From NCBI GenBank assembly GCA_023229825.1, contig JALNYN010000001.1, positions 14,422-78,421 on the forward strand: 64,000 bases of DNA, written 5' to 3'. Position numbers and translations under genes: made by a program. This DNA is from Minisyncoccota bacterium (GTDB taxonomy: Bacteria; Patescibacteriota; Minisyncoccia; Phycocordibacterales; CAIJYI01). The notes under the pieces were generated by a model that was not told the DNA's origin, did no database searches, and saw only the letters and a program-made list of their open reading frames with translations. Shown here piece after piece: positions 4,945-64,000 of this stretch (the stretch's first letter is position 1; each line of letters begins with the position of its first letter).

Positions 4945-5077
4945 AAAACCATCTTGTGAGTTAGCAGAGCTAATTTTGGCAGCGTAAGTTGCCAGACCAG
5001 CGATACTAATTTGGTTCGCAAAACACCCCTTCGGATTCGTCCGTCGGGGTTTTTGCGTTGTGGTGGAGGAGGCGGTT

Positions 5078-5123
5078 CCCCTAGGGCGGTCCTCGGGAGG
5101 TTTCCCGAGGACCGCCCTAGGGG
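5078..5123. repeat. REP1 perfect palindrome (CCCCTAGGGCGGTCCTCGGGA-GGTT-TCCCGAGGACCGCCCTAGGGG) upstream of the RAYT gene
   Basis: Same family at 5826-5873 and 14401-14449. Confidence 0.8.
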
Positions 5124-5138
5124 AAAACGGAGCAATCG

Positions 5139-5155: not shown

Positions 5156-5848
5156 GAACGAAAATTTAATTTTAGCGTTGATGAGTACTATCATATTTAT
5201 AGCCGTGGAGTTGAGAAGCGTGAAATTTTTCTTGATAATGGAGATAAAGAAAGATTTTTACGTTTATTGTTCTTATCTAACTCAGGCAAACCATTTAATT
5301 TTAGAGAAGTTTCCGGAATTTCTTTTGAAAATATTTCTCGAGGAGAACCACGAACAGCCATAGGAGCTTTTTGCCTTATGCCCAATCATTTTCATCTACT
5401 ATTACGAGAAACCGAGGAGGGCGGAATAAGTGCATTTATCGGAAAACTTCTCACTGGCTATTCAATGTATTTTAATAAAAAATACAAACGAAAGGGTGTA
5501 GTTTTTGAAAGCCGTTTTCAGGCTCAGCACGTCGATAACGACAATTACCTCAAATATCTCTTTGCTTATATCCATCTCAATCCGGTAAAACTCATCGAAC
5601 CGGAATGGAAAGAGAAGGGAATCAAAGATCAGAAATTTGCCGAAGACTATCTGAATAAATATCGCTACAGTAGCTATGAAGATCATATGGGCACAGAAAG
5701 AGAAGAAGCCCTTATCCTCGACAAAGAGTCTTTCCCAGAATATTTCGAAAGATCCCGTGATTTCAAAGACTATGTAACGGATTGGCTCAATTATCGCGAC
5801 GAAGAGGAAGGCGGTGGCGACACTGTTCCCGAGGGCGGTCCTCGGTAA
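5153..5848 (+). CDS. REP-associated tyrosine transposase (RAYT / IS200-like Y1 HUH transposase)
   Basis: HUH motif NHFHLLL and the Y..YIHLNPVK motif, matching E. coli RayT (HMHCIW; YIYINPVKHG); flanked by REP1 palindromes; paralog at 61945-62655. Confidence 0.85.
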   Translation: MERKFNFSVDEYYHIYSRGVEKREIFLDNGDKERFLRLLFLSNSGKPFNFREVSGISFENISRGEPRTAIGAFCLMPNHFHLLLRETEEGGISAFIGKLLTGYSMYFNKKYKRKGVVFESRFQAQHVDNDNYLKYLFAYIHLNPVKLIEPEWKEKGIKDQKFAEDYLNKYRYSSYEDHMGTEREEALILDKESFPEYFERSRDFKDYVTDWLNYRDEEEGGGDTVPEGGPR

Positions 5849-14400: not shown

Positions 14401-14449
14401 GTCCCCTAGGGCGGTCCTCGGTATTTTGCCGAGGACCGCCCTAGGGGAC
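14401..14449. repeat. REP1 palindrome copy 3, followed by a T-run: doubles as the map terminator
   Basis: GTCCCCTAGGGCGGTCCTCGG-TATTTTG-CCGAGGACCGCCCTAGGGGAC then tttttg. Confidence 0.8.
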
Positions 14450-39097: not shown

Positions 39098-39143
39098 TTT
39101 TCTACAAGGTTAGTCCTTGTACAAGGACTAACCTTGTAGAAAA
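39098..39143. promoter_or_regulatory. perfect 46-bp palindrome upstream of ald
   Basis: TTTCTACAAGGTTAGTCCTTGT|ACAAGGACTAACCTTGTAGAAA. Confidence 0.5.
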
Positions 39144-59198: not shown

Positions 59199-59308
59199 TC
59201 GTCGTCGGACGGGATTTGTATCCCGTTCGAAACGCTTGAAGAAAACGCTGAACGCAGTAATTTCAAACGTTTCGAACGAAGGTACAACCTTCGTCCGGCG
59301 GACGAGGG
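59199..59308. repeat. Family-A inverted pair (GGACGGGATTTGTATCCCGTTCGAAACGCTTG ... CAAACGTTTCGAACGAAGGTACAACCTTCGTCCGGCGG)
   Basis: Loop TACAA(A) conserved; stems differ from other copies but remain complementary. Confidence 0.6.
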
Positions 59309-60123: not shown

Positions 60124-61320
60124 ATGGCAGCAGAAGAATTCAAGCGGGATAAACCGCACGTAAATGTAGGTACTATCGGACACGTCGACCACGGCAAGAC
60201 CACTCTTACCGCGGCTATTCTCCATGTTCTCGACATGGCGGGAAAGACGGTTAAATTGAAAAGCGTTGACCAGATCGACTCAGCGCCGGAGGAAAAAGCT
60301 CGCGGAATTACGATCGCGCTTTCTCACAATGAATATTCGACCGATGCTCGCCATTATGCGCACATCGACGCTCCCGGACATGCTGACTATATTAAGAACA
60401 TGATCACCGGAGCCGCTCAGATGGACGGTGCGATCCTCGTGGTTGCCGCCCCGGACGGAGCTATGCCTCAGACTCGCGAACACATCTTGCTCGCGCGACA
60501 GGTTGGAGTACCGAAAATGATGGTATTCTTGAACAAATGCGATCTCGTTGATGATCCGGATCTGATCGAGCTCGTCGAAGAAGAAATTCGCGAACTTTTG
60601 ACCAAACAAGGATTTGACGGCGCGAACGCTCCTATTATCCGCGGTTCTGCGACCAAAGCTCTCGCTTCGAAAGATCTCAACGATCCTGACGCGAAAGCGA
60701 TCTTGGCGCTCTGCGATGCGATGGACACCTATATCCCGGTCCCTGAGAGAAAGACCGATCTTCCGTTCCTTATGCCGGTTGAAGACATCTTCACCATTGA
60801 AGGACGCGGAACTGTCGCCACAGGACGTATCGAACGCGGTACGGTCAAAGTCGGAGAAGAAATCGAGATCGTCGGACTCAAACCGACCGTTAAGACGACC
60901 ATCACCGGTATCGAAATGTTCAACAAATCTCTCAAGGAAGGATTTGCCGGAGACAATGCCGGAGTTCTGCTCCGCGGAGTCAAGAAGGAAGACGTTACTC
61001 GCGGACAAGTACTCGCGAAACCGGGTTCCGTTACTCCTCACACCGAATTCACCGGAGAGGTTTACATTCTCTCGAAAGAAGAAGGAGGACGCCACACACC
61101 GTTCTTCACCGGATACAAACCGCAATTCTATATTCGCACCACTGACGTTACCGGAGAAGTTACCTTGAACGAAGGAGTGGAAATGGTTATGCCGGGAGAT
61201 ACTGTCACTTTCAAAGTTAAGCTTATCATGCCGGTCGCGCTCGAAGAGAAGATGCGTTTCGCGGTCCGCGAAGGAGGACGAACCGTAGGATCAGGGGTTG
61301 TAACCTCGATCATTGCGTAA
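60124..61320 (+). CDS. tuf: elongation factor Tu
   Basis: [22 protein letters not shown] motifs; full length. Confidence 0.97.
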
Positions 61321-61407: not shown

Positions 61408-61833
61408 ATGCCTACAAAAACCACGACAACTAAACCGGCGGCCAAAGCGGTAAAACCGAAAGCGGCAGCACCTAAGGCTCCCGTGAAAGCGGTAAAAGCG
61501 GCGGTCGCGAAACCGAAAGGCGACGAGTTTCAGAAGCTTCGTATTCGCGTTCGCGCGTACGAGCACAAGATCCTCGATGCTTCGGTAAAGCAGATCATCG
61601 ACACGGCAGTTCGCTATGATGCGAAAGTGCTTGGCCCGATACCTCTACCTGCTGAGATCAAGAAATACACGGTCAACCGATCAACATTCGTTCACAAAGA
61701 TGCAAGGGAACAGTTTGAGATCCGCACGCACAAGCGCCTGATCGACATTCTGAACCCCAGCCCGAAAGTGATCGAGGCTCTCACGAACCTCTCGCTTCCG
61801 TCCGGAGTGAATATCGATGTTAAAATGATCTAA
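61408..61833 (+). CDS. rpsJ: 30S ribosomal protein S10 with a Lys/Ala-rich N-terminal extension
   Basis: QKLRIRVRAYEHKILDAS...; conserved tuf-rpsJ order. Confidence 0.9.
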   Translation: MPTKTTTTKPAAKAVKPKAAAPKAPVKAVKAAVAKPKGDEFQKLRIRVRAYEHKILDASVKQIIDTAVRYDAKVLGPIPLPAEIKKYTVNRSTFVHKDAREQFEIRTHKRLIDILNPSPKVIEALTNLSLPSGVNIDVKMI

Positions 61834-61897
61834 TTATAATATCAAAGGTTACAAAAACACACGGCAAAAGACGTGTGTTTTTGTCGGTTCATTCCAT

Positions 61898-61913
61898 GAA
61901 GGACGGTCCTTGG
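61898..61913. repeat. REP2 palindrome (GAAGGACGGTCCTTGG) upstream of RAYT2; further copies at 62110-62130 (inside the ORF) and 62661-62682 (downstream)
   Basis: Core CGGTCCT shared with REP1 (GGGCGGTCCTCGG). Confidence 0.65.
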
Positions 61914-61944
61914 TTTATATTTTAGGCATGGTATACTCATATTT

Positions 61945-62655
61945 ATGAAACGCCATTTTGCCTTTGCTCCCGATGAATATTATCACGTTTACAACAGAGG
62001 GACGGAAAGACGTGTTATTTTTGAAGATGATCATGATTATAAAAGATTTCTCGTACTTTTATACCTAAGCAACGGCACCGCTGCGATTGACCTAAACGAA
62101 TATTTTTCTCAGGAAGGACGGTCCTTCCTTGAACTCTTTAGGGCTAACCGCGGGTCGCAAATTGTGGATGTGGGATCGTATTGCCTTATGCCTAATCATT
62201 TTCATTTACTGCTTCGAGAAAAAGTAGACGGAGGCGTCAGTACTTTTATGAAAAAACTTGGGACAGCTTATTCCACATATTTTAATAAAAAAAATACGCG
62301 GGTCGGACCGTTGTTCCAAGGTCGCTTTAAAGCGCAGCATGTTGATATTGACAATTATTTAAAATATCTGTTTTCATATATTCATTTGAACCCTGTAAAA
62401 CTCATTGATCCAAAATGGAAGGAGAAGGGGATTTTTGACATGAAAAAGACTAAAGAATATTTGAACGAATACCCATACTCAAGTTATCAGAACTTTCTCG
62501 GGAGGAAACAAATTGAAAAGGTGATACTAACCAGAAACCGCTTTCCTGAATACTTTAAAACAACGCATGACTTTGAAGAGTTTATAAATGATTGGCTGAC
62601 GTTTGACGATGAGTTTGATGTCCGTAGACCGTCAGGAAAGAGAAAAAGACTGTAA
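61945..62655 (+). CDS. REP-associated tyrosine transposase (RAYT), paralog 2
   Basis: CLMPNHFHLLLRE and YLFSYIHLNPVKL; flanked by REP2 palindromes; one REP2 copy lies in-frame within the ORF (encodes QEGRSFLE). Confidence 0.85.
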   Translation: MKRHFAFAPDEYYHVYNRGTERRVIFEDDHDYKRFLVLLYLSNGTAAIDLNEYFSQEGRSFLELFRANRGSQIVDVGSYCLMPNHFHLLLREKVDGGVSTFMKKLGTAYSTYFNKKNTRVGPLFQGRFKAQHVDIDNYLKYLFSYIHLNPVKLIDPKWKEKGIFDMKKTKEYLNEYPYSSYQNFLGRKQIEKVILTRNRFPEYFKTTHDFEEFINDWLTFDDEFDVRRPSGKRKRL

Positions 62656-62835
62656 AATGACAAGGAAGGACCGTCCTTCCTGTAAAAGTTTGACAATACC
62701 TATTTGTTTGTTAGTATCAAAACCAGATTGCTGTGATGGTTGCGGATAGTTCGCAACCGTTTGAACAGCAACGGGAACCTTGTAAAACCCGCCGTCGCTC
62801 TCGACGAGCTATGGCGAGGCAAAGGAGAAACTGTC

Positions 62836-63522
62836 ATGAATAAGACGACTAAAGTTGTCACAGACGGTACAAAAATGAGCAATGAGCAGCTTGGCTTGCT
62901 GACTCGCCGCCATGATGAAATTAAACGAAGGATCAATGAAGGGGCAATTCATTTTGATGAAGTTGCAAAAGGATACCAGGCCATCACCGAAGGAGGAAGA
63001 ATTATTCAGCCGATCGTGATGCCGATGTTTACCGTTACCGCAACTGGAAAAGCACTGAAATATTCCCTTGGTCAACTTCGAAAAAAATGGTGTGTGGTTA
63101 GTGCCGGAACGGAACGATACGATTCGCTGGATCCTCCGCTTCAAAAAGGAAAAATACTTCTTCTTGGAATTATTCATTGTGATGAATTTCATCCCGATGA
63201 GCTCGAAACATCTATTATCAGGAAAGAAGCTCATCGAAGAGGATGGATCTCTCCACCGGCAGAAGTCGCTTGTCTCCTGCGCGAAAAATTTTCTACAGAG
63301 GATATTAATTCATTTGGTCTTACGCGGCTTGCTATAATGCATGAGCCATATCCTGACAAAACACCATATCTTGATCCTACGGATAGGAAGTCATGGGTTT
63401 GGACGCTTTGCGGACATGATACTCCTATCGGCGCGCTCCACGGAATACGATGCATGAGCTGGAATTATTTCAGCGAGGATCGGTACGGATTTGTGTTTCA
63501 AATCCCAAACTTCATCGGTTAA
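62836..63522 (+). CDS. hypothetical protein
   Basis: Strong SD aaggagaaactgtcATG; 228 aa. Confidence 0.55.
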   Translation: MNKTTKVVTDGTKMSNEQLGLLTRRHDEIKRRINEGAIHFDEVAKGYQAITEGGRIIQPIVMPMFTVTATGKALKYSLGQLRKKWCVVSAGTERYDSLDPPLQKGKILLLGIIHCDEFHPDELETSIIRKEAHRRGWISPPAEVACLLREKFSTEDINSFGLTRLAIMHEPYPDKTPYLDPTDRKSWVWTLCGHDTPIGALHGIRCMSWNYFSEDRYGFVFQIPNFIG

Positions 63523-63642
63523 TATAAAATAGAAAATATTTACTCCCGCTTTGGCTTCAACCGAGGCGGGTTTTTAAAAAATTGACGATATTTTTTTAAT
63601 ATGTTTTACTCTAAAGAGATATAATTATTTGCGGAGGTTAAA

Positions 63643-63885
63643 ATGGGTTTGAGTCAATTCTGCGGTTTTGTTCTTATTCTTTGCGTGGTTTCACTCTTGA
63701 TAGTCCTTGCGATCGGGGCCGGTGCTTTGCTGCTGAAAAATTTTTTTCGATTTTTAATTTGGATAGGACGGGGAACATCGGAAAAAGCGAAAATATTTGT
63801 TCGTGATCAGTTGCCGGAATGTTGCCGGTTTCATCGACATCATTGCGAGCGTCATTGCCCTCACAACAAAAGAAAAACAGAGTAA
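63643..63885 (+). CDS. small membrane protein with Cys/His-rich C-terminal tail (CCRFHRHHCERHCPH)
   Basis: RBS ggaggttaaaATG; terminator at 63886-63917. Confidence 0.4.
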   Translation: MGLSQFCGFVLILCVVSLLIVLAIGAGALLLKNFFRFLIWIGRGTSEKAKIFVRDQLPECCRFHRHHCERHCPHNKRKTE

Positions 63886-64000
63886 AAAAAAGTCTCGGCA
63901 ACCGTCGAGACTTTTTATATTATACCGCTTTGTTTTTTTGCTCGCTTTTTATCCTCTCTGAACGGACGAGGAAAAATGTCCCTACCCATGAACCGAGAAC

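Follow-up and report, generated by a model that had tools for sequence, protein, structure and literature searches.

The subject of this study is the gene RAYT2 and the short palindromes associated with it, located in a 64,000-nucleotide stretch (hereafter the window, meaning the whole stretch that was analysed) of contig JALNYN010000001.1 from a Minisyncoccota bacterium. RAYT2 encodes a protein resembling the REP-associated tyrosine transposases (RAYTs); it is bracketed by copies of a repetitive extragenic palindrome (REP) of its own, named REP2, and a further copy lies in frame inside its open reading frame (ORF). Our results make it probable, although well short of certain, that positions 61897-62682 constitute a REPtron-like cassette in which this third hairpin copy is ancestral and evolves in concert with the outer ones. 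The palindrome changes across lineages while the in-ORF copy stays near-identical to the flanking or dispersed copies of its own locus, so that the copies appear to evolve in concert. The in-ORF copy is an ancestral feature within a large clade of Patescibacteria, where it is held at a fixed codon and encodes the turn of a predicted helix-turn-helix hairpin. An earlier sequence-only reading of the window had recognized the transposase and its palindromes, and had explained the in-ORF copy by the insertion of 18-21 bp into RAYT2, as judged by comparison with paralog 1 (RAYT1), the other RAYT of the window; the former part is borne out below and the latter is not.

The RAYT2 cassette and its enzyme

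Palindromes had been reported upstream of, inside and downstream of the ORF, and all three occur at those places (Table 1), the upstream one in decayed form. Matches to the 17-mer numbered 5 when both strands were counted, vs 0.16 expected, and 0 of 100 shuffles reached 5, which excludes chance. The inner 17-mer GGAAGGACGGTCCTTCC (62112-62128) extends to a 19-nt perfect palindrome, AGGAAGGACGGTCCTTCCT (62111-62129), in frame with RAYT2 as claimed. The downstream 22-nt copy starts 5 nt past the RAYT2 stop codon, and its 17-mer, GGAAGGACCGTCCTTCC at 62664-62680 (8 nt past the stop), has C as its centre base and is therefore the reverse complement of the inner copy. The decayed upstream copy ends 31 nt 5′ of the RAYT2 ATG and has G at its centre, which makes the two flanking copies inverted, an orientation shared by the homologous locus L181 with both copies perfect. 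Folded as single-stranded DNA (ssDNA), the in-ORF and downstream copies form 8-bp hairpins of about -7 kcal/mol with z of about -4 (in-ORF z = -4.2), and the upstream copy reaches -2.7 kcal/mol (z = -0.9, not significant). Within the 64-kb window and the 2 kb beyond it, all three copies of REP2 lie at the RAYT2 locus and no further copy is present, so that over this range REP2 is not shown to be a dispersed family; REP1, the palindrome of paralog 1, has one solo doublet in the window. REP1 (GGGCGGTCCTCGG) and REP2 (GGACGGTCCTTCC) do have the core CGGTCCT in common, as the sequence-only reading had noted. No GTAG was found beside any of the three REP2 copies, and the only CGTC is that of the palindrome centre, read on one strand.

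That RAYT2 is a second Y1 transposase of RAYT-like type, paired with a cognate palindrome, is upheld by domain and fold. RAYT2 scores 35.5 bits against Pfam Y1_Tnp (cut-off 23), which paralog 1 passes also, and both proteins lie below the cut-off of 80 of the NCBIfam equivalog NF047646 (REP_Tyr_transpos), at 43.6 bits for RAYT2 and 42.0 for paralog 1. The HFH motif (residues 85-87) and the catalytic-Tyr region YLFSYIHLNPVK (residues 141-152, the Y-x-x-x-NPV region) align with PEHMH and VDYIYINPVK of Escherichia coli RayT, and the HUH and catalytic-Tyr columns are invariant in the homologue alignment A2. An AlphaFold model of RAYT2 built from 42 sequences (pLDDT 84.9) has as its top Foldseek match in the PDB the E. 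coli TnpA-REP in complex with a REP hairpin (4ER8_A; E = 5e-6, target TM-score 0.62), with the IS608 and ISDra2 TnpA structures ranking below it; a sequence-profile search of the PDB returned no RAYT2 relative. In the model, Q56-S60 forms the turn between helices 50-55 and 61-66 (pLDDT about 87-92), which agrees with the loop position proposed for the in-ORF copy, and the predicted helical hairpin, whose turn is coded by the palindrome, is inserted between alpha1 and beta2 of the HUH fold. Homologues at E <= 1e-10 numbered 7,908, the named ones being mostly from Patescibacteria, and a protein identical to RAYT2 is annotated in a Candidatus Paceibacterota metagenome-assembled genome (MAG). Viral contigs gave one distant match only.

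Recurrence of the layout in homologous loci

We fetched 80 homologous loci from metagenomes (all loci below are designated by L numbers) and compared each ORF with its own flanks. Among the 78 related ORFs in the match count, all exact ORF-to-flank matches of at least 15 nt are palindromes, and they fall at three places only, namely around residues 52-60 (site 1), after the HUH strand (site 2) and in the C-terminal tail. Likewise, of the GC-rich perfect hairpins with a stem of at least 7, 10 lie at nt 150-179 and 21 at nt 630-719, with almost none elsewhere in the ORFs. The recurrent layout consists of one copy 9-45 nt before the ATG, one at ORF nt 153-173, with a spacing of 180-224 nt between these two, and a third, usually at the 3′ end of the ORF or no more than 14 nt after the stop, which is missing from L109, L173 and L175. 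From one locus to another the palindrome differs, but the copies within a locus are mostly near-identical, and the likeness stops at the palindrome edge. In 17 of the 40 loci of one clade, the in-ORF palindrome matches its own flanking hairpins over 13-25 nt; L107, with matching stems and different loops, is counted beside these. A neighbour-joining tree places the site-1 copy in this one large clade only, with 0 of about 39 loci outside it having one. Most loci in both halves of the family retain hairpins that match each other, upstream of the gene and at its 3′ end, with the common core AGG-N5-CCT. The pairing of transposase and REP that had been suggested from two paralogs is extended, each transposase having its own hairpin across many loci.

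Individual loci illustrate how the three copies change together. The closest relative, L181 (= P0002; protein 84% identical), has all three copies, the upstream one in a perfect form, AAAGGAAGGACGGTCCTTCCTTT. Its gene neighbourhood differs from that of RAYT2, and its homology with the window runs from the upstream palindrome to the outer edge of the downstream one and no further, which marks 61897-62682 as a discrete cassette. A scan of species-representative genomes for the 17-mer gave matches in many Patescibacteria; in L056, from a Saccharibacteria MAG of 34% GC whose protein is 54% identical, the identical 17-mer is found upstream, at ORF nt 164 and at the 3′ end. At the same in-ORF site L044 has a different palindrome, CATAGGGTTACCCTATG, which encodes PIGLPYV and matches two hairpins upstream of the L044 gene, and the gene of P0004 (62% identity) has REPIN-like inverted doublets on both sides and a lone unit within the ORF. 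Homologues 55-60% identical to RAYT2 (L188, L192, L194/L195 and partly L190) occupy one conserved neighbourhood comprising recA, ftsK, a DeoR-like gene, a gene of about 1,100 aa, the RAYT, a giant gene with an LTD domain, rplJ and rplL, as would be expected of a vertically inherited gene rather than of a hopping element. In these syntenic orthologues, stepwise variants are shared by the in-ORF and flanking copies (GAAAGGACGGTCCTTTC, CGAAGGGCGGTCCTTTG and GGAAGGCCGGGCCTTCC), and in a further variant, GGAAGGGCGGTCCTTCC, the in-ORF copy is partly decayed.

In-frame palindromes also occur at two other places of the protein. At site 2, just after the HUH strand, the proteins of L152 and L166 are longer by 12-15 residues, and this extra stretch holds a palindrome that matches their own flanks, so that these copies are true in-frame insertions; the distant L144, which has no site-1 copy, carries a palindrome at the same loop. 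The C-terminal tail of RAYT1, VPEGGPR*, is coded by the left arm of the 3′ REP1 (window 5825-5848), and the tail LGKDRPSQK* of L056 (3837-3862) is likewise coded by the left arm of its 3′ hairpin, so that the tail sequence differs with the REP type. Dispersed REP copies were seen in the genomes of L043, L072, L188 and L180. As a separate observation, the 17-mer also lies within a longer repeat (about 70 nt or more by eye), gattccacttgaaaattcag-17mer-ggtcgtcgttttagcaacg..., in the Planctomycetia MAG JAUNAI01; this repeat is found on at least 7 contigs (L001, L005, L037, L055, L065, L070 and L080), and those loci contain no RAYT2 homologue.

The syntenic pair L056 and L044 is near-identical in the 3′ half of the gene and in the downstream gene and differs in the 5′ part and in the types of the upstream and in-ORF hairpins, with the identity climbing just past the in-ORF palindrome (ORF nt ~200 onward). 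This pattern suggests a recombination breakpoint near the in-ORF palindrome in this pair. We did not retain general module swapping at the in-ORF hairpin, because N- and C-terminal identities are not discordant family-wide and L056/L044, which is not among the listed outliers, stands as a single anecdote.

DNA-level constraint on the in-ORF stem

For codon-level comparison, codons were anchored on the protein alignment, and clade members without the palindrome were included. Within the encoded pentapeptide x-G-x-[STAP]-[FL], the palindrome always has its centre at base 2 of the middle codon. Codon 2, for G, is paired with codon 4 as GGA/TCC, GGT/ACC, GGC/GCC or GGG/CCC, which places S, T, A or P at position 4, and codons 1 and 5 pair as GAA/TTC, CAA/TTG, CGA/TCG or ATA/TAT. 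Residue pairs such as E/F, Q/L, G/S and R/P thus co-vary because their codons are reverse complements, and compensatory codon pairs preserve the stem. Pairing cells amounted to 64.8% vs 48.2 +/- 1.9 in shuffles, and the covariation score was 0.392 vs 0.181 in shuffles (0 of 500 reached the observed value), with slid controls at 0.12-0.18. Residues 56 and 62 are antisense-compatible (Q/L, R/T, R/P, S/A, K/L) in 68% of 120 proteins vs 31 +/- 4% after shuffling.

Synonymous recoding with the codon usage of the ORF itself reproduces the RAYT2 stem with P = 0.008, and values are similar or lower in most of 14 other loci; loci with stems of at least 5 bp outside the 5-nt centre gave P from <0.00005 to ~0.1, and the 4-bp stem of L184 gave P = 0.24. 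The longest block identical between the window and L181, whose genes are 80% identical, spans the in-ORF palindrome and measures 47 nt, of which 25 nt lie upstream of the palindrome (P ~0.001). An RNA or sense-strand structure was considered and rejected: mismatches on the sense strand of in-ORF stems are G.T in 8 cases and A.C in 5, an absence of asymmetry by which nothing points to strand-specific or RNA structure, and Rfam gave no match at E <= 1.

Proposed mechanism and alternative explanations

The concerted change of the copies could be brought about by the encoded enzyme, which would bind REP hairpins as ssDNA and cleave and rejoin beside them. Exchange between REP sites might then overwrite the in-ORF copy with the current REP variant, leaving length and frame unchanged, and survival would be limited to variants whose translation still makes an acceptable turn, so that the in-ORF copy would serve as a protected REP site usable by the enzyme. 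In vitro, E. coli TnpA-REP cuts next to REPs and exchanges strands between REP sites, and integration has been modelled as recombination with a target that already bears a REP (PMC3333891). Short-tract conversion, or template switching during replication between neighbouring copies, may provide an alternative route to the same outcome.

Several observations weigh against a cassette with an ancestral, concertedly evolving in-ORF copy. No trace of the enzyme acting on the in-ORF copy was seen, such action being inferred, and inspection of the loci found no conserved cleavage-type motif (e.g. GTAG) beside the copies. The orientation of the outer relative to the inner copies varies between loci, and the three copies of L107 differ in their loops, for which independent drift is a better fit than copying. 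The covariation itself cannot separate compensation in place from wholesale replacement by REPs that were already palindromic. Moreover, the in-ORF copy has decayed in about half of the clade, paralog 1 included, while the flanking hairpins are still perfect, which indicates that the copy is dispensable and that homogenisation is not universal. Taken with its clade-wide distribution, this frequent decay shows the in-ORF copy to be old, often lost and not required for the upkeep of the flanks.

A regulatory role of the in-ORF copy is possible, and the alternative that survives best, although we hold it to be rather unlikely, is selection of the hairpin as a cis element, either as an operator or roadblock that senses the transposase level via ssDNA or mRNA, or as an internal end that limits or redirects cleavage. 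Such selection could account for the unusually conserved synonymous sites around the copy (the 47-nt block), for the recurrence of the three-part layout with its constant distance of the first two copies, for the gain of site-2 copies in at least two distant lineages (L144, which lacks the site-1 copy, and L152 with L166), and for the better preservation of the in-ORF copy than of the upstream copy in the window. However, about half of the clade has lost the element and the other half of the family does not have it, yet the flanking hairpins show no visible effect, and no terminator-like T-run follows the in-ORF copy, nor is there any strand asymmetry or Rfam match.

It seems improbable, furthermore, that the in-ORF copy is a master template, protected by coding and linked to the enzyme, from which the flanking and dispersed REPs were seeded nearby as offspring. 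In favour of this idea, several upstream copies are variously decayed beside a perfect in-ORF copy (L194, L119, L188), and flanks reproduce imperfect in-ORF variants exactly, the copy 30 nt upstream in L105 being equal to the in-ORF copy although three other L105 copies share a more perfect form. The idea is weakened, however, because the REP1 doublets are intact, identical and dispersed even though paralog 1 has no in-ORF copy, and half of the family keeps matched flanks without one. A further proposal, to which we give about as little credence, is that the protein element coded by the hairpin itself helps to recognise the hairpin, the in-ORF copy being a linked specificity module. If this were true, a single mutation of the in-ORF copy would affect both the hairpin and the protein that reads it, the enzyme and its repeat family would diversify in step, and the matched trio in every lineage would be explained.

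The origin favoured by the sequence-only reading, a recent in-frame insertion of an 18-21-bp REP2 unit that was tolerated in a loop and explains the six extra residues of RAYT2, now appears very improbable. The length difference itself is real, since pairwise alignment with paralog 1 places two extra 3-residue stretches in RAYT2 on either side of G-x-S-F, and in-frame REP insertions are documented elsewhere (PMC3733652) and occur in the RAYT2 family at site 2 (L152, L166). Against this, nearly all of the 120 closest homologues have [EKQ]GR[STA]F-x-EL at equal length, so that the residues are not private to RAYT2, and the shorter form occurs only in a small clade including paralog 1. The short-loop relatives of paralog 1 in that form (L105, L107 and L111) carry palindromes at site 1 themselves, coding QGLPL or QGLAL, so it is the residues on either side of the palindrome that make RAYT2 longer than paralog 1; at the site-1 loop, homologues have the same length whether or not they carry a palindrome. 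Homologues from other genomes, in lineages 40-60% diverged, carry at the identical codon palindromes that match their own flanks and are unlike REP2 in sequence. Where the earlier reading had looked to homologues with the same residues and no palindromic DNA as the sign against an insertion, a third case was found, the same residues with palindromic DNA in many lineages, and this argues for an ancestral rather than a newly inserted in-ORF copy. Paralog 1, whose in-ORF hairpin site is decayed to TCC GGA ATT TCT TTT, is then one of the losses of that copy. Finally, it is scarcely credible that the palindrome simply follows from the protein sequence, or arose by chance, without any constraint on the DNA: a palindrome can encode EGRSF, and the protein conserves this motif, but synonymous recoding rarely restores the stem, the 22-nt identity with the downstream copy is exact, and amino acids change on both sides in ways that keep the pairing.

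Neighbourhood, paralog 1 and other hairpins of the window

The genes 5′ of RAYT2 are tuf (60124-61320) and rpsJ (61408-61833). The S10 ribosomal operon is interrupted at this point, with about 2.8 kb between rpsJ and rplC/rplD (window 61834-64000; 6029-8876 in L186), and the gap contains the RAYT2 cassette followed by ORFs of 228 and 80 aa and, on the minus strand, one of 100 aa, with no Pfam matches. A terminator-like hairpin, AAAAACACACG-N8-CGTGTGTTTTT, lies 3′ of rpsJ at 61853-61882. The putative RAYT2 promoter (Table 1) would possibly give a leaderless or nearly leaderless mRNA; its TTGGTT hexamer overlaps the right arm of the upstream palindrome, and its TATACT is kept in L181. The consensus promoter scan did not report this pair, and the promoter and terminator scans gave nothing above shuffle expectation save the downstream palindrome itself.

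For paralog 1, synteny with the recA-ftsK-...-rplJ neighbourhood was not seen. The window is rich in hairpins with the AGG-N5-CCT core, 7 with a stem of at least 6 being present vs 0.135 expected. A third hairpin type, consisting of an inverted doublet of TACAAGGTTAGTCCTTGTA and its reverse complement, lies at 39098-39143, has this core and has no transposase gene nearby, and a fourth, the single hairpin ACGAAGGTACAACCTTCGT at 59276-59294, is situated inside a called gene of 115 aa without a Pfam match.

Table 1. Coordinates of the RAYT2 and RAYT1 features in the window
Feature	Position	Strand	Description
RAYT2, Y1 HUH transposase-like, 236 aa	61945..62655	+	Pfam Y1_Tnp, TnpA-REP-like fold
Upstream REP2 copy, decayed	61897..61913	+	TGAAGGACGGTCCTTGG; 3 mismatches to the 17-mer; left cassette boundary
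In-frame REP2 copy	62110..62131	+	CAGGAAGGACGGTCCTTCCTTG inside the RAYT2 ORF; encodes Q56-E-G-R-S-F-L62
Downstream REP2 copy	62661..62682	-	exact 22-nt reverse complement of the in-ORF copy; right cassette boundary
Possible promoter	61910..61937	+	TTGGTT, 16-nt spacer, TATACT, ending 7 nt before the ATG; by eye
RAYT1 (paralog 1), 231 aa	5153..5848	+	54% identical to RAYT2
REP1 inverted doublet 5′ of RAYT1	5076..5125		23-bp stem, 4-nt loop; -33.7 kcal/mol
REP1 inverted doublet overlapping the RAYT1 stop codon	5825..5874		24-bp stem
Solo REP1 doublet	14405..14445		between an M24 peptidase gene and a 934-aa ATPase gene; no RAYT near

Significance and comparison with known systems

Even for E. 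coli, the question of how REPs spread and keep their match to the RAYT has yet to be settled (PMC8266576). The copy pinned at one codon of the RAYT gene in hundreds of lineages of this family could serve as a positional marker, against which substitutions in the flanking and dispersed copies may be ordered along a phylogeny, so that copying and independent drift become directly testable. The RAYT2 family also shows that a gene and a repeat can limit each other's sequence over long periods, the peptide [EKQ]-G-x-[STAP]-[FL] being in effect a hairpin translated, and it extends REP/RAYT-type systems to Patescibacteria. In a literature search of incomplete coverage, whose silence is therefore no evidence of absence, we met no account of a REP copy at a fixed RAYT codon that co-varies with the flanks, and, within the same limits, no paper on REP/RAYT systems in Patescibacteria.

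REPtrons, REPIN doublets and REPs overlapping the ends of RAYT genes have already been described (PMC2817692, PMC3333891, PMC3733652). The cassette resembles the REPtrons of E. coli (rayT/yafM), Pseudomonas and Stenotrophomonas in its Y1 HUH enzyme, whose best fold match is TnpA-REP, and in being bracketed by cognate palindromes, which are inverted here and in several other loci, with an orientation that varies family-wide. REPIN-like inverted doublets flank genes of the RAYT2 family and are dispersed as well, and each paralog has its own REP type. Some RAYT2 orthologues (L188, L192, L194/L195) are syntenic, as vertically inherited genes are, whereas the neighbourhoods of RAYT2 and L181 differ and the window holds two paralogs. 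The RAYT2 family differs from REPtrons in its third REP copy, in frame at a fixed codon; the E. coli rayT, taken as a control, has REPs on both sides, a longest ORF-to-flank match of 9 nt and no hairpin in the ORF, and it is without the helical hairpin between alpha1 and beta2. The RAYT2 protein is longer, having this extra helical hairpin and a C-terminal helical region, and it scores below the NCBIfam equivalog cut-off; the repeats have no GTAG tag and share the hairpin core AGG-N5-CCT, and the hosts are Patescibacteria with copy numbers that are so far low.

Compared with the IS200/IS605 family (IS608, ISDra2, IS200), the likeness lies in a Y1 gene placed between hairpins at or near the cassette ends, presumably read as ssDNA, and in a cassette that is sharply bounded by hairpins and found in different gene neighbourhoods. 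Unlike those elements, RAYT2 has no multiple identical whole-element copies, the only paralog in the window being 54% identical and having another hairpin; the end hairpins of the RAYT2 family are inverted or variable rather than in the same strand orientation; the hairpin occurs also as solo and doublet copies; and one hairpin lies inside the ORF. In-frame intragenic REPs and the palindromic elements of Rickettsia (RPEs) have been described too (PMC3733652), and they share with the RAYT2 family a palindromic repeat that is translated within a functional protein, predicted by the model to lie in a loop in the case of RAYT2, the site-2 copies of L152 and L166 being true insertions of this kind. 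In the RAYT2 family, however, the repeat resides in the gene of its own transposase, the site-1 copy gives no extra residues compared with relatives lacking the palindrome, and this copy stays at one codon across a large clade while changing along with its extragenic counterparts.

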